Shown piece by piece: positions 2,781-9,797 of a DNA stretch of 10,219 bases. A program made the translations under genes and the position numbers. Position 1 is the first letter of the stretch. Every line of letters begins with the position of its first letter. The notes below the pieces were generated by a model. It did not search any database. It worked only from the letters and a program-made list of their open reading frames with translations, and had not been told where the DNA came from. This DNA comes from a virus: the UHGV virus genome UHGV-0275486; one strand, written 5' to 3'.

Positions 2781-3103
2781 ATTCTGAACCCTAAAAAAAG
2801 AAACACGGACACTGATAATGCCCGTGTGGCAATGCCATGTAAGTTAGCGATGAATATGGCGCAAAAAAAGCGCGGCCGTCGGATTAACGCCGCGGGACAA
2901 AGTCCATGAAGAATCATAAGTATTGGCCCCCTTCTGGGGACATGTTCATACTACTAAGCTTCAGAAGTGGTTTAAATCATCAAATTAACCTTAATTTTCG
3001 ATAAGTCTTATTTCATTTCTTTGCGCCACATCTGGCGCGCATCAAATAACGCCACGCAAAGGGCATCTGCGGATGCCGGTGCTTTTGACGGGGTGTTTTT
3101 TAC

Positions 3104-3125
3104 GGGCCGCTGGTGGCCATTTTTT
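3104..3125 (+). terminator. small intrinsic terminator-like hairpin just upstream of the holin gene
   Basis: GGCC(G)/(T)GGCC stem (3105-3109 with 3114-3118), 4-nt loop, then A and six T (3120-3125). It lies about 40 nt before the holin start and could alternatively be a structure regulating holin translation. Confidence 0.4.
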
Positions 3126-3165
3126 GTTTCCATTACACAGCGCCCGCATCTGCGAGGTGGGGGTT

Positions 3166-3381
3166 ATGAAATCCATGGATAAGTTAACAACGGGTGTCGC
3201 CTATGGCACCTCCGCAGGCAGTGCTGGCTACTGGTTTTTACAGTTGCTCGATAGAGTCACGCCCTCACAGTGGGCAGCAATAGGTGTGCTGGGTAGTCTG
3301 GTGTTTGGCCTGTTGACGTATCTGACAAATCTTTATTTCAAGATTAAAGAAGATAAGCGTAAGGCTGCACGGGGAGAGTAA
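3166..3381 (+). CDS. S: class II holin, phage 21 S-type pinholin, with dual-start motif
   Basis: 71 aa from ATG 3166 ([29 protein letters not shown]...[11 protein letters not shown]), close to the phage 21 S protein as recalled and the same length. Met1 and Met4 give the antiholin/holin dual start. GAGGTGGGGG precedes the start. The upstream in-frame extension from 3073 runs across the terminator hairpin and is not used. Confidence 0.9.
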
Positions 3382-3385
3382 TTCA

Positions 3386-3730
3386 ATGACTCAAAACTAT
3401 GAACTGATTGTGAAAGGGATCCGCAATTTTGAGAATAAAGTTACGGTAACTTTAGCGTTACGGGACAAAAAACGCTTTGACGGTGAAATTTTAGACCTGG
3501 ACATCTCGCTGGACCGTGTTGAAGGTGCCGCGCTGGAGTTTTATGAGGCAGCAGCCAGAAGAAGCATCAGACAGGTCTTCCTGGATGTTGCTGCCGGGTT
3601 ATGTGAAGGGGATGAGCAGTCACCGGAAAAGCGCCCCATAATTTTAGAGGCGCAGGGTGTGTGGATAACCTACAAAGGAAAACTGCCGGGAAGAATTACT
3701 GGTTCACTGAAGACTCCGCCGAAATGGTAA
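3386..3730 (+). CDS. DUF1327 / YdfR-like protein inserted between holin and endolysin
   Basis: 114-aa ORF starting 5 nt after the holin stop, with GGGGAGAG 7 nt upstream of the ATG. Hydrophilic protein resembling, from memory, the Qin prophage YdfR family, which also sits between holin and endolysin genes. Confidence 0.6.
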   Translation: MTQNYELIVKGIRNFENKVTVTLALRDKKRFDGEILDLDISLDRVEGAALEFYEAAARRSIRQVFLDVAAGLCEGDEQSPEKRPIILEAQGVWITYKGKLPGRITGSLKTPPKW

Positions 3731-3968
3731 TTTCACCAGCATATTTTTCTTCCAGTAATACCGCCAGCCACTTGAAAGAATTTTGTTGTTGCTGGGACCA
3801 TTTGGGGTTGAGTGATTCAAGCTGGAGCGATGCCAGTGTTGGTTGCATTTGTTCCTTGGGAATTGAGAATGCCAGATATGAAAATGCGACAGTAAGGGCA
3901 TTTACATCATCCCGAAGCCTGGAAATGCAGTCGAGCAACTCCTGTAGAGAAATGGTGCTATTGTCCAT
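3696..3968 (-). CDS. hypothetical protein on the antisense strand inside the lysis cassette
   Basis: 90-aa ORF with a strong ribosome-binding site on the minus strand (AGAGAGGA, 7-nt spacer, ATG). Composition is helical and protein-like, unlike the overlapping + strand ORF 3661-3993. Its 3-prime end overlaps the DUF1327 gene by 35 nt. No homologue recognised. Confidence 0.4.
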   Translation of the reverse strand: MDNSTISLQELLDCISRLRDDVNALTVAFSYLAFSIPKEQMQPTLASLQLESLNPKWSQQQQNSFKWLAVLLEEKYAGEITISAESSVNQ

Positions 3969-4073
3969 AAATAATCCTCTCTATTGTATTTAACTATTCC
4001 TTGCCTGATTCAACAGGCCGGGACAGATAAACATATCCAGGGTTCAGAAACCGATAAATCCTGATAAATATCC

Positions 4074-4607
4074 ATGAACGCAAAAATCAGATACGGCCTG
4101 TCGGCTGCCGTTCTGGCACTGATTGCCGTCGGTGCGCCTGCGCCTGATATTCTCGACCAGTTTCTGGATGAAAAAGAAGGTAACCACACAACGGCATACC
4201 GCGATGGTTCCGGTATATGGACCATCTGTCGTGGTGCCACAATGGTGGATGGTAAGCCCGTCATACCGGGAATGAGGCTGTCGAAGGAAAAATGCGACCA
4301 GGTTAACGCTATTGAACGTGATAAGGCGCTGGCATGGGTGGAGCGCAATATTAAAGTACCACTGACCGAACCACAGAAAGCGGGTATAGCGTCATTTTGT
4401 CCCTATAACATTGGCCCCGGTAAGTGTTTCCCGTCGACGTTTTATAAGCGGCTGAATGCCGGTGATCGTAAGGGTGCATGCGAGGCGATTCGCTGGTGGA
4501 TAAAAGATGGTGGGCGCGATTGCCGCATACGTTCAAATAACTGCTATGGACAGGTTATTCGTCGTGACCAGGAAAGCGCATTAGCCTGTTGGGGGATAGA
4601 TCAGTGA
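4074..4607 (+). CDS. R: SAR endolysin (lysozyme with N-terminal signal-anchor-release domain)
   Basis: 177 aa. The N-terminus ([17 protein letters not shown]) is a weakly hydrophobic Gly/Ala-rich segment typical of SAR domains. It is followed by the lysozyme catalytic spacing E-x8-D-x5-T ([16 protein letters not shown]). A SAR endolysin is the expected partner of a pinholin. Confidence 0.9.
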
Positions 4608-5068
4608 GCAGAGTCGCCGCGATTATTTATGCTCTGGTTATCTGCATCATCGTCTGCCTGTCATGGGCTGTTAATCATTACCGTGATAACGCCACCGCCT
4701 ACAAAGAGCAGCGCGACAAAAATGCCAGAGAACTGAAGCTGGCGAACGCGGCAATTACTGACATGCAGATGCGTCAGCGTGATGTTGCTGCGCTCGATGC
4801 AAAATACACGAAGGAGTTAGCTGATGCGAAAGCTGAAAATGATGCTCTGCGTGATGATGTTGCCGCTGGTCGTCGTCGGTTGCACATCAAAGCAGTCTGT
4901 CAGTCAGTGCGTGAAGCCACCACCGCCTCCGGCGTGGATAATGCAGCCTCCCCCCGACTGGCAGACACCGCTGAACGGGATTATTTCACCCTCCGGGAAC
5001 GACTGGTAATGATGCAGGCCCAACTTGAAGGTGCTCAGCAATACATAACCGAACAGTGTTTAAAGTAA
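4604..5068 (+). CDS. Rz: i-spanin Rz
   Basis: GTG start at 4604 overlapping the endolysin stop (GTGA). The N-terminus ([29 protein letters not shown]) is a transmembrane segment, followed by a coiled-coil region. Close to lambda Rz as recalled. The ORF track's TTG at 4589 is an upstream in-frame alternative. Confidence 0.9.
4824..5009 (+). CDS. Rz1: o-spanin Rz1 (lipoprotein embedded in the +1 frame of Rz)
   Basis: 61 aa ([24 protein letters not shown]...[15 protein letters not shown]) with a lipobox ending in Cys and a proline-rich body. AAGGAG lies 7 nt upstream of the ATG. Lies wholly within Rz, as in lambda. Confidence 0.85.
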
Positions 5069-5205
5069 AATCTTAACTACAATATGATTCATTTTGATGA
5101 TTGTTTCATAAGGAACAGTGAAGTAAGATCTAAGAGGAGTTAAATTTTATACAGTATAATCATAATATTGCAGCAAGGTGGTTATAATTGAAAGAATATT
5201 TAGAT

Positions 5206-6663
5206 ATGAATACATCTCATGTAAGAGTTGTTACTCATATGTGTGGGTTCCTGGTTTGGCTCTATAGTCTTTCAATGTTGCCACCAATGGTTGTAGCATT
5301 GTTTTATAAAGAAAAAAGCCTGTTCGTTTTCTTTATAACTTTCGTTATATTTTTTTGCATTGGTGGCGGAGCGTGGTATACAACTAAGAAATCTGGCATT
5401 CAATTACGTACCCGTGATGGGTTTATTATAATTGTAATGTTTTGGATTTTGTTTTCTGTTATTAGTGCATTCCCTTTATGGATTGACTCAGAACTTAATT
5501 TAACGTTCATTGATGCTCTGTTTGAAGGGGTTTCTGGAATAACAACAACAGGAGCAACTGTAATTGATGATGTTAGTTCATTACCTCGGGCATATTTGTA
5601 CTATCGGTCACAGTTAAATTTTATAGGTGGTTTAGGAGTTATTGTTCTGGCGGTTGCTGTATTGCCATTATTGGGTATTGGTGGTGCAAAGCTTTATCAG
5701 TCAGAAATGCCGGGGCCATTTAAGGATGACAAACTCACTCCCCGCCTGGCCGATACGTCACGGACACTGTGGATAACTTATTCTTTATTAGGTATTGCTT
5801 GTATTGTCTGTTATAGACTTGCAGGAATGCCTTTGTTTGATGCTATTTGTCACGGGATTTCCACAGTTTCGCTTGGTGGTTTCTCAACTCATAGCGAGAG
5901 TATCGGATATTTTAATAACTATTTGGTTGAGCTGGTGGCTGGTTCTTTTTCCCTGCTATCGGCTTTCAACTTCACTCTTTGGTATATTGCTATTAGCAGG
6001 AAAACGATAAAACCTTTAATCAGAGATATTGAACTTCGTTTCTTTCTGTTAATAGCCTTAGGGGTGATCATTGTTACCTCTTTCCAGGTCTGGCATATAG
6101 GTATGTATGACTTGCATGGAAGTTTTATTCATTCGTTTTTTCTTGCCAGCTCCATGCTCACTGATAATGGTTTAGCTACGCAGGATTATGCAAACTGGCC
6201 CACGCACACGATAGTGTTTTTGCTGTCGTCAAGTTTCTTTGGGGGATGTATAGGTTCAACTTGTGGTGGAATTAAGTCACTTCGATTTCTTATACTTTTC
6301 AAACAAAGCAAACACGAGATAAATCAGCTTTCTCATCCCAGAGCGTTGTTGAGTGTAAATGTAGGAGGGAAGATAGTTACAGATCGTGTAATGAGGTCTG
6401 TATGGAGTTTCTTTTTTCTTTATACTCTCTTCACGGTGTTTTTTATACTGGTGTTAAATGGTATGGGATATGATTTTCTTACATCATTTGCAACAGTGGC
6501 TGCATGTATTAATAATATGGGATTAGGTTTTGGGGCTACTGCATCGTCATTCGGAGTGCTTAATGACATTGCAAAATATTTAATGTGCATAGCTATGATT
6601 CTTGGTCGCCTTGAAATTTATCCTGTTATTATATTGTTTTCAGGTTTTTTTTGGCGCTCCTAA
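5206..6663 (+). CDS. trkG: Trk-system potassium uptake protein TrkG (TrkH/TrkG family membrane protein)
   Basis: 485 aa from ATG 5206 (491 aa from TTG 5188). Multiple transmembrane segments and the conserved TrkH-family motifs (GITTTGATV, LYQSEMPGP, GGCIGSTCGGIK). Markedly AT-rich compared with its flanks. Matches the trkG gene of the K-12 Rac prophage as recalled, in the same position after Rz/Rz1. Confidence 0.9.
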   Translation: MNTSHVRVVTHMCGFLVWLYSLSMLPPMVVALFYKEKSLFVFFITFVIFFCIGGGAWYTTKKSGIQLRTRDGFIIIVMFWILFSVISAFPLWIDSELNLTFIDALFEGVSGITTTGATVIDDVSSLPRAYLYYRSQLNFIGGLGVIVLAVAVLPLLGIGGAKLYQSEMPGPFKDDKLTPRLADTSRTLWITYSLLGIACIVCYRLAGMPLFDAICHGISTVSLGGFSTHSESIGYFNNYLVELVAGSFSLLSAFNFTLWYIAISRKTIKPLIRDIELRFFLLIALGVIIVTSFQVWHIGMYDLHGSFIHSFFLASSMLTDNGLATQDYANWPTHTIVFLLSSSFFGGCIGSTCGGIKSLRFLILFKQSKHEINQLSHPRALLSVNVGGKIVTDRVMRSVWSFFFLYTLFTVFFILVLNGMGYDFLTSFATVAACINNMGLGFGATASSFGVLNDIAKYLMCIAMILGRLEIYPVIILFSGFFWRS

Positions 6664-6800: not shown

Positions 6801-7592
6801 ATGAGCGAGAAATTAAAGATAGTCTATCGCCCATTACAAGAATTGTCACCGTATGCGCACAACGCCAGGACGCACAGTACTGAGCAGGTGGCACAACTGG
6901 TAGAAAGTATTAAGCAATTCGGCTGGACTAATCCGGTGCTGATTGACGAAAAGGGCGAAATTATTGCGGGTTACGGTCGTGTTATGGCGGCTGAAATGCT
7001 CAAAATGGATTCTGTTCCGGTCATTGTTCTGTCTGGCCTGACGGATGAGCAGAAAAAGGCGTACCGCCTGGCAGATAATCGCCTGCCGATGAATGCTGGC
7101 TGGGATGAAGATCTGTTGCGGATGGAGCTGTCGGACCTAATCAATGCTGATTTTGATGTCTCCCTGACAGGCTTCATCCCGACAGAAATTGATGAACTGT
7201 TGACGGATGTTTTGCCCGGTACAGGAAATGAGGAGGAGCCGTATACGACGAAAATTGATACGCCTGTTTATGAGCCGTCGGGCGGTAAACCGGATATCAG
7301 TGAACTGTACGACGATACGAAAACTCAGGAGCTGATCAGCCGGATACGTTCGGCGTCCCTTGAGCCTGATATTGAGAAATTCCTCCTGTGTGCGGCAGAA
7401 CGTCACACGGTGTTTAATTTCAGTAGAATTGCGGACTATTACGCTCACGCCCCCTCTGAAATTCAGTGTTTTTTCGAGGAGTCGGCGCTGGTGATCATTG
7501 ATTATCAGCAGGCTATTGAAAATGGATTTGTCCGGATGACGCAGCGCATGGTGGAGATCATGCATGGTGGTGAGGAGGAGGAATATGCGTGA
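6801..7592 (+). CDS. ParB/Srx-like N-terminal domain protein with acidic C-terminal region
   Basis: 263 aa. The N-terminus (PLQELSPYAHNARTHSTEQVAQLVESIKQFGWTNPVLIDEKGEIIAGYGRVMAA) has the ParB-like nuclease-domain pattern, including the Gly-x-x-Arg core. The C-terminal half is acidic and ends in EEEEYA. AAGG precedes the ATG. Confidence 0.75.
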   Translation: MSEKLKIVYRPLQELSPYAHNARTHSTEQVAQLVESIKQFGWTNPVLIDEKGEIIAGYGRVMAAEMLKMDSVPVIVLSGLTDEQKKAYRLADNRLPMNAGWDEDLLRMELSDLINADFDVSLTGFIPTEIDELLTDVLPGTGNEEEPYTTKIDTPVYEPSGGKPDISELYDDTKTQELISRIRSASLEPDIEKFLLCAAERHTVFNFSRIADYYAHAPSEIQCFFEESALVIIDYQQAIENGFVRMTQRMVEIMHGGEEEEYA

Positions 7593-8707: not shown

Positions 8708-9154
8708 ATGAGCAGACCGGACTGGGGGGCGTTGCAGCAGGAGTATATTGCTGAATACACCCGCTCCGGTATATCTCCGGTGGCATGGTGTGAAGCAAGG
8801 GGACTGAATTACGCAACAGCCCGTCGTTACATCAAAAAAACTCCGAAAAATGCGCAGACAGAAATGCGCAAAACTGCGCAAAAAAGTGCGCAGAAAAAAT
8901 CTGCGCAGACTGCACAAAAGCGGAACGAAAAATCTCAGGAAAAAAAGCCAGTATTCGATGCGGGCCTGAATGAGGGCGACGCGGAGGAATTTTCGTTCTG
9001 TCCCGATGATTTCGGCATTTCTGACCAGCAGGCTAAGTTTGCGATGCTTGTTGCTCAGGGTAAAAAGCCGACAGAGGCGTACCGACTATCTGGATTTTTT
9101 CAAAGGCGAGATAGGGAAAACCCATCTGGCTCAGGAGCTGTGGACGCAGATTGA
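8708..9154 (+). pseudogene. terminase small subunit, truncated at the 3-prime end and running into unrelated sequence
   Basis: The N-terminal 130 residues look like a small terminase: a helix-turn-helix-like segment (ISPVAWCEARGLNYATARRYIKK), a K/Q/A-rich linker, and the conserved [27 protein letters not shown] motif. After about nt 9097 the frame decays into an unrelated 18-residue tail ending at TGA 9152-9154. Another frame carries tail-protein J-like sequence from about 9084. Confidence 0.6.
8851..8916 (+). repeat. cluster of TGCGCA hexamers inside the small terminase gene
   Basis: TGCGCA at 8851, 8865, 8875, 8887 and 8902, plus TGCACA at 8911, spaced 9-15 bp. The region encodes the K/Q/A-rich linker. 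Confidence 0.5.
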
Positions 9155-9797
9155 TAACGGTCAGCTTGCGCCTGACCTGGCTGAAATCAGGACATCCATT
9201 ACGGATGTCAGCAATGAAATCACACAGACCGTCAATAAGAAACTGGAAGACCAGAGTGCAGCGATCCAGCAGATACAGAAGGTTCAGGTTGATACAAATA
9301 ATAACCTGAACAGCATGTGGGCCGTGAAACTGCAGCAGATGCAGGACGGACGCCTTTATATTGCGGGTATCGGTGCCGGTATTGAGAATACGCCAGCAGG
9401 AATGCAGAGTCAGGTGCTGCTGGCGGCAGACAGGATTGCGATGATTAATCCTGCGAATGGCAACACAAAGCCGATGTTTGTTGGTCAGGGTGATCAGATA
9501 TTCATGAACGACGTGTTCCTGAAACGCCTGACGGCTCCCACCATTACCAGCGGCGGTAATCCTCCTGCATTTTCCCTTACACCGGACGGGCGACTGACGG
9601 CGAAAAATGCGGATATCAGTGGCAGTGTGAATGCGAACGCCGGGACGCTCAACAATGTCACGATAAATGAAAACTGTCGGGTTCTGGGAAAACTGTCTGC
9701 GAACCAGATTGAAGGCGATCTCGTTAAAACAGTGGGCAAAGCTTTCCCCCGGGACTCCCGTGCACCGGAGCGGTGGCCATCAGGGACCATTACCTGA
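9084..9797 (+). pseudogene. C-terminal fragment of tail-tip / host-specificity protein J homologue
   Basis: From about 9084 the frame encodes sequence ([23 protein letters not shown]...[77 protein letters not shown]...) that closely matches the C-terminal region of lambda J as recalled. There is no J N-terminus, which would be about 900 aa. The frame stops at TGA 9795-9797, before where lambda J ends. Confidence 0.6.

Follow-up and report, generated by a model that had tools for sequence, protein, structure and literature searches.

In phage 21 the holin gene S and the endolysin gene R are adjacent, and endolysins of the signal-anchor-release (SAR) type reach the periplasm without a holin. 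The Qin prophage of Escherichia coli K-12 has the order essQ-ydfR-rrrQ-rzpQ. The locus described here lies in the virus genome UHGV-0275486, of which a stretch of 10,219 nucleotides (nt) was analysed (the window; position 1 is its first letter). Between positions 3386 and 4073 of the window, a phage-21-type holin gene and a gene for a SAR-like lysozyme are split by ydfR, a DUF1327 gene on the plus strand, and by a minus-strand open reading frame (ORF) of 90 residues, termed ORF90. This split had been described in an earlier note made from the letters alone (the sequence-only reading), and each of its features was found in place. The window resembles Qin in holin type, in the N-terminal domain of YdfR, in lysozyme type and in gene order. 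It differs in that the K-12 ydfR encodes 103 residues, has a different tail and overlaps the start of rrrQ by 4 nt; the slot between the two genes is absent from Qin, and so is any antisense gene. The best explanation of the window is that ORF90 is a genuine protein-coding moron, inserted in reverse in a hot spot at the 3′ end of ydfR between phage-21-type holin and endolysin genes, to which a probability of roughly 0.65 is assigned. The features of ydfR and the slot are as follows.

3386–3730, plus strand: ydfR (DUF1327), 114 residues; Pfam PF07041, E=8e-42, 141.8 bits against a gathering cut-off of 25
3627–3653, minus strand: hairpin GCGCCUC-9 nt-GGGGCGC followed by UUUU, candidate terminator of an antisense transcript, inside the ydfR tail
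3661–3993, plus strand: shadow ORF of 110 residues, not a gene; no Pfam or PHROG match
3696–3968, minus strand: ORF90, 90 residues; phrog_2411, UniRef 'Ybl58', WP_000370551.1 hypothetical protein
3696–3725, minus strand: last nine codons and stop of ORF90, antisense of the ydfR end that is common to the empty allele; a junction-derived tail
3726–4017: ORF90 cassette, 292 nt; by BLAST, the sequence common to the empty allele runs up to 3725 and resumes at 4018
3975–3982, minus strand: ribosome-binding site AGAGAGGA, 7 nt before the ORF90 ATG
3983–4013, minus strand: weak sigma-70-like candidate promoter TTGAAT-19 nt-TACAAT, the sole candidate and doubtful
4003–4018: inverted repeat GCCTG-ATTCAA-CAGGC at the right-hand cassette edge; a 7-bp perfect repeat in other alleles

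The minus-strand ORF and its near-ideal ribosome-binding site (AGAGAGGA, 7 nt, ATG) stand as the sequence-only reading gave them. The length of ORF90 is by itself insignificant, the window having many antisense ORFs of 90–146 residues; what raises it above chance is homology, namely the match to phrog_2411 (E=3.1e-59, profile positions 1–90 of 90) and the remote homologues described below. Conservation of the antisense ORF across homologous cassettes, a check that had been proposed, was determined in a set of 99 homologous regions, 35 of them distinct and many located via the ORF90 protein itself. The 35 distinct relatives align over 474 nt without indels, down to 80% DNA identity. The ribosome-binding site and start codon (GAGGATT.TTTATGG) are invariant among them, and ORF90 is intact in each lineage at or below 94% DNA identity. 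A second sample was selected by DNA: 39 records, evenly spaced through the 1140 E. coli records that matched. A coding sequence is called at the ORF90 position in 39 of 39, and the 273-nt ORF is intact in three loci fetched from this sample at 85–91% identity (L112–L114). Variable sites of ORF90 show codon periodicity (51/79, 22/79 and 31/80 for the three codon positions). These patterns indicate that ORF90 is a genuine conserved protein-coding gene, and they point to moderate purifying selection. The plus-strand ORF at 3661–3993, which the sequence-only reading had allowed might be the real coding frame, loses its start codon or gains stops in all relatives at or below 94% identity and has no family match.

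At least 1000 public contigs carry the exact ORF90 sequence. Homologues of 81–97 residues at 30–45% identity were retrieved by a profile search over 1.84 billion proteins and by a second search; they share the motif ELL..I..LR..VN.L.vAFSYLaFs...E...Ti.aL.fES.N. The Citrobacter and Serratia homologues also match phrog_2411 (1.9e-33 and 4.5e-10, respectively). The Serratia gene is the X of a core synteny pyrC-dinI-X-bssS-solA; dinI and bssS are presumably adjacent in E. coli K-12, with no ORF90-family gene between them. Other homologues lie on the Sodalis chromosome, in a Citrobacter prophage (transcribed divergently from the holin gene) and next to AIDA-type autotransporter genes in E. coli. 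Judged from these matches, the family is limited to Enterobacterales. This remote homology in unrelated genomic contexts is the decisive evidence; a shadow frame could not give rise to such a family. In Serratia the homologue (L104 5001–5282; L119–L122 3001–3279) stands between bssS and dinI, which carries a LexA box and its own terminator; the box was considered for the ORF90-family gene and rejected, since it belongs to dinI. The Citrobacter prophage with the ORF90 homologue also encodes the Hfq-binding small RNA isrI (Rfam RF01392, 51.7 bits; L105 6929–7026, minus strand).

ORF90 is predicted to be a soluble acidic four-helix protein, structured over about 80 residues. The AlphaFold2 model, with a predicted local distance difference test score (pLDDT) of 72, consists of four helices and, at residues 81–90, a disordered tail with pLDDT below 50. 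The isoelectric point is 4.4, the net charge −5, and there is no transmembrane segment; the whole family is acidic. No match to ORF90 was found in Pfam, NCBIfam, PADLOC or PDB sequence searches. Small, acidic and helical as it is, the protein probably works through contact with a host or phage protein and not with DNA.

The sequence-only reading had offered three explanations for the antisense gene, a lysogen-expressed cargo gene, a lysis-timing regulator and a two-gene module with an antisense relationship; of these, the cassette boundaries support a cargo gene. An 'empty' allele, that of E. coli A27, agrees with the window in ydfR and in the sequence before R; 19 nt replace 3726–4017, and the flanks are 94–96% identical. 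The cassette is thus a discrete insertion missing from the empty allele, and unrelated ORFs fill the same slot elsewhere. The 3′ ends of ydfR and ORF90 do overlap by 35 nt, at 3696–3730, as had been noted. The part encoding the ORF90 tail pre-exists in the empty allele, however, and the overlap is therefore a by-product of insertion, not a regulatory design. The junction-derived tail agrees with the disorder predicted for residues 81–90 and with the DNA homology to a plasmid-borne ORF90 copy, which begins only at 3729.

The same boundaries bear on the proposal that ORF90 and ydfR are a functional two-gene module, with one or both genes controlled through convergent, overlapping transcription or through antisense pairing. 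An overlap of 32–35 nt is retained in all examined ORF90-bearing loci, and in L087 ORF90 is kept together with the ydfR tail although the ydfR N-terminus has been replaced. The binding of K-12 YdfR to RNase E and its co-purification with RNA make a link at the RNA level conceivable. Yet the tail kept in L087 holds a stop codon, and the empty allele has the same ydfR tail, in whose pre-existing sequence the overlap lies. Two unrelated ORFs stand in the place of ORF90 in other prophages, one with an overlap of 4 nt and one with an overlap of 53 nt. Pairing is also far from obligate: ydfR-like DNA occurs in 4383 genomes against 1139 for ORF90, and ORF90-family genes occur without ydfR in Serratia, Sodalis and Citrobacter and beside autotransporters. 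The module is accordingly held to be very unlikely; the two genes occur independently, and their overlap is an insertion junction. In the prophage with the replaced ydfR N-terminus, a ParE/ParD-like toxin–antitoxin pair stands directly downstream of the lysozyme gene (L087–L089 1089–1623).

The slot between ydfR and R accepts other cargo. ORF86 (86 residues, phrog_2572) lies antisense in the same slot next to a long YdfR (L117 1024–1284 and L118 1043–1303, both minus strand), and ORF79 (79 residues, AT-rich, phrog_21218) lies antisense next to a different YdfR tail (L102 1512–1751, minus strand). Among 5426 complete E. coli genomes, ORF90 is found in 1139, ORF86 in 314 and ORF79 in 103. All three occupants are in reverse orientation. 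Kinship of ORF90 with ORF86 or ORF79 was rejected (hhalign probability 0.3%), and no known small RNA or transfer RNA (tRNA) remnants were found in the slot. ORF86 is unannotated in phage PhiR63_1, and its label 'DUF1823' in PhiR5_1 was discarded as sub-threshold (12.9 bits against a cut-off of 25).

ORF90 is also kept where R has been replaced by another lysis cassette, as in Stx2 phages, or by an insertion sequence (IS) element, and it is carried by the isolated phages Chlobot, 783R2 and phiSTEC1575-Stx2k. In Stx2-type prophages holin, ydfR and ORF90 are followed by a second lysis cassette (Phage_holin_8, Phage_holin_3_7 and an M15 peptidase) in place of R. At other loci an IS66 or IS3 element stands in place of R or between the holin gene and ydfR, and ORF90 is intact throughout (Stx2-type and IS cases together: L098/L099 1285–2322; L097 1–2427; L113 1240–2060; L095 3201–4429).

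The uniform orientation of the occupants could be taken to mean that the ORF90 protein or its antisense transcript regulates lysis or its timing, for example by damping leaky expression of the pinholin and SAR endolysin in the prophage or by uncoupling S and R messages. In two phage settings, the S–R slot of E. coli and the region upstream of the Citrobacter holin gene, members of the family adjoin lysis genes and lie on the other strand; three unrelated ORFs are all antisense at the slot; and ORF90 is retained in cryptic prophages with intact lysis genes, the window included. On the other side, the Serratia homologues are core chromosomal genes far from lysis genes, most phage-21-type cassettes do without ORF90, and no Rfam family matches. 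The candidate terminator would end an antisense RNA within ydfR, well short of S. The Q–S interval and the surroundings of lysis genes are, moreover, a generic moron site. The lysis-timing role raised by the sequence-only reading thus gained no positive evidence, with the core-chromosomal Serratia homologues and the autotransporter-adjacent ones counting against it, and it is considered unlikely.

As a moron inserted backwards, ORF90 would be transcribed alone from the minus strand in the lysogen while late transcription is off, as for bor and iss. The antisense transcript would end at or near the hairpin and U-run inside the ydfR tail, and head-on late transcription after induction would shut ORF90 down. 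The slot may tolerate only backwards cargo: from a promoter active in the lysogen and facing forwards, transcription would run on into the endolysin gene, and a SAR-type endolysin needs no holin for its export. The reverse orientation is thus plausibly enforced by the downstream endolysin gene. A more speculative reading gives orientation and position more weight than the encoded protein: the slot would be an antisense-only cargo site, at which minus-strand transcription of ORF90, ORF86 or ORF79 in the lysogen acts as a cis safety lock or as an RNA-processing cue on the S-ydfR-R late message, possibly in cooperation with the RNase E-binding YdfR. This is regarded as improbable.

Several observations weigh against ORF90 as a working moron, beginning with its expression signals. 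The candidate promoter has a 19-nt spacer, and its −10 element ends 15 nt before the ATG; transcription starting from it would therefore begin inside the ribosome-binding site. A stricter promoter scan found none, and the scans over 3000–5400 gave no more matches than shuffled sequence. The U-run of the candidate terminator is only four residues long, and alleles that lack cargo, the empty allele among them, have the hairpin as well; it is therefore not specific to ORF90. GC content differs little between the cassette (0.43–0.46) and its flanks (0.50–0.54). The ratio of nonsynonymous to synonymous substitution rates (dN/dS) is 0.33 in the minus frame and 0.23 in the plus-strand ORF at 3661–3993. 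A minority of ORF90 copies are frameshifted or truncated. Fold searches returned generic helical matches only, which leaves the function of the protein a guess, and literature searches (ydfR with holin, DUF1327, ybl58 and WP accessions) returned no mention of ORF90.

Some of these points would be expected if the minus-strand ORF were non-functional, either the shadow of a plus-strand coding or RNA feature or a decaying hitch-hiker. The mirror frame has an equally low dN/dS (0.23), no promoter was found, broken copies exist, and the prophage around it is defective, its terminase gene being truncated and fused to a tail-fibre fragment. With third codon positions in common, however, the two frames cannot be told apart by dN/dS; the ratio was dropped as a frame discriminator, and ORF integrity and remote homology were used instead. 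By these measures, no relative at or below 94% identity keeps the plus-strand ORF whole, whereas ORF90 is intact in them, distant homologues of the same length occur in unrelated contexts, and isolated, viable phages carry ORF90. Among the genes of the cassette (holin 0.08, lysozyme 0.09, ydfR 0.35, ORF90 0.33), the dN/dS of ORF90 matches that of ydfR. A non-functional ORF is therefore quite unlikely, and a protein-coding moron in reverse orientation is preferred.

The altered copies, P0045, P0046, P0050 and P0059 (94 residues) and P0043, P0047, P0056 and P0127 (46–56 residues), are frameshifted into the 3704–3901 frame or truncated. In the copy that a plasmid carries in L005, the ATG lies out of frame at an A-run, and the start chosen by the Prokaryotic Genome Annotation Pipeline (PGAP) is a non-ATG codon.

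The candidate terminator hairpin has its better fold on the minus-strand RNA, where UUUU follows it. Its arms (GCGCCCC/GAGGCGC) are kept in two otherwise divergent ydfR tails, with a 9-nt loop in one and a 6-nt loop in the other, which belongs to the ORF79 allele (L102 1438–1460), and in the relative L093 a U·G pair has become U–A. This conservation could also reflect no more than the conserved R-P...E-A codons in the ydfR coding sequence. No Rfam match was found in 3300–4200, even at E values up to 1. A cis-antisense RNA regulator or type I toxin–antitoxin system was rejected, given that only the 3′ ends overlap and no Rfam family matches. A LexA box upstream of ORF90 was also rejected, the palindrome there being CCTG-N6-CAGG and not CTG-N10-CAG. 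Antisense ORF79 in E. coli and the ORF90-family gene of the Citrobacter prophage are both preceded by a perfect hairpin element of 19 nt, CAGTGGTAGGACACTGGCG, which the window lacks (L102 1808–1826, minus strand; L105 4930–4948; L106; L107).

The plus-strand gene is coupled to the holin gene as had been described, with the start of ydfR at 3386, 4 nt past the holin stop codon. YdfR consists of a conserved N-terminal domain of about 74 residues and a variable C-terminal tail that begins just past it; the window protein is 80% identical to K-12 YdfR over residues 1–74. According to a 2026 study (PMC13232886), K-12 YdfR uses its first 72 residues to bind RNase E in the catalytic N-terminal half; RNA co-purified with the protein, and no expression of it was seen under standard conditions. 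The RNase E binding is a lead for ydfR, which may modulate RNA or RNase E during lysis, with no tie to ORF90. Long YdfR forms of 176–211 residues (P0155; P0159; L117 525–1076; L118 460–1095) carry an extra C-terminal helical segment after 'GSLKTPP', the exact breakpoint at which the ORF90 cassette begins; the YdfR C-terminus is therefore modular. A relationship between ORF90 and this extension was rejected (hhalign probability 0.2–0.3%).

The remaining genes of the lysis cassette are as follows.

3166–3381, plus strand: phage-21-type class II holin, 71 residues; Pfam PF04971, Phage_holin_2_1, 'Bacteriophage P21 holin S', E=4.8e-35; phrog_9876 and phrog_20 'holin'; PGAP essD
4074–4607, plus strand: lysozyme-type endolysin of the rrrQ type with a SAR-like N-terminus; Pfam PF00959, Phage_lysozyme, E=1.3e-24
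4604–5068, plus strand: Rz spanin; Pfam Phage_lysis, E=9e-53; PGAP 'lysis protein'
4824–5009, embedded in Rz in another reading frame: Rz1, an ORF with a lipobox

The holin N-terminus MKSMDK places Met1 and Met4 in the dual-start arrangement of S21, from which pinhole formation is predicted. The N-terminal segment of the lysozyme is rich in Ala and Gly and resembles a SAR domain, and export and release are predicted from this likeness. Its relatives in the PDB are the phage 21 lysozyme 3hde (3e-16) and RrrD (4zpu), both SAR lysozymes.

The window is a mosaic, defective lambdoid prophage of E. coli, Rac/DLP12-like. Positions 3100–4700 are 100% identical to E. coli EcPNK006, on which PGAP annotates, in order, essD (holin), a YdfR family protein, a hypothetical protein on the opposite strand, lysozyme, lysis protein and trkG. 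The Rac hallmark trkG directly follows Rz. Near 9100 a truncated terminase small-subunit gene is fused to a tail-fibre fragment; the entire morphogenesis region has therefore been deleted (stretches concerned, from trkG onward: window 5188–6663, 6801–7592 and 8708–9797). The prophage is thus defective, yet its lysis cassette is intact. Upstream, two tRNA genes (2326–2398 and 2405–2476; tRNA-Thr and tRNA-Gly in the identical RefSeq record) stand between a DUF1133 gene and the holin gene, and the DUF1133 gene (1475–2016) is, from its position, likely a Q-type antiterminator.

The order S-ydfR-R is the usual one in E. coli prophages. DNA matching 3386–4073, mostly its ydfR part, occurs in 4383 of the 5426 complete E. 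coli genomes, K-12 Qin with its essQ-ydfR-rrrQ included. An antisense gene in the lysis region, which the sequence-only reading called unusual, was overstated as such: bor and iss are precedents, and the same layout is annotated in 21% of complete E. coli genomes. The layout of the window is common, ydfR and ORF90 carry annotations already ('YdfR family protein' and 'hypothetical protein'), and the pattern is that of an ordinary moron. The result nonetheless defines an Enterobacterales-wide family of small acidic helical proteins without a Pfam model, whose Serratia member belongs to the core chromosome between dinI and bssS, and it places a hot spot within the lysis cassette, filled by three unrelated small genes that all run backwards. 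The pattern suggests a rule: cargo that precedes the gene of a SAR endolysin, which needs no holin, has to be oriented away from that gene. Together with the report on YdfR and RNase E, it makes S-ydfR-slot-R a reasonable region in which to seek RNA-level control of lysis genes.

Compared with phage 21, the window has a holin of the same S family with the dual start, and a SAR-like lysozyme related to 3hde. It differs in that its lysozyme is distant from R21 (62 bits) and that ydfR and ORF90 stand between S and R. The closer parallel for ORF90 itself is with the bor/iss morons, bor of lambda and iss of E. coli prophages. Like these, ORF90 is a small accessory gene beside lysis genes, directed against late transcription, present in some related prophages and absent from others, and retained in cryptic prophages; iss itself lies on the minus strand just after Rz in the related loci L004 and L102. 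Unlike bor and iss, which follow Rz, ORF90 sits inside the cassette, between ydfR and R, with its 3′ end running into ydfR. Moreover, bor and iss encode a lipoprotein, whereas ORF90 is predicted to encode a soluble acidic helical protein, for which expression in the lysogen is suggested by analogy.

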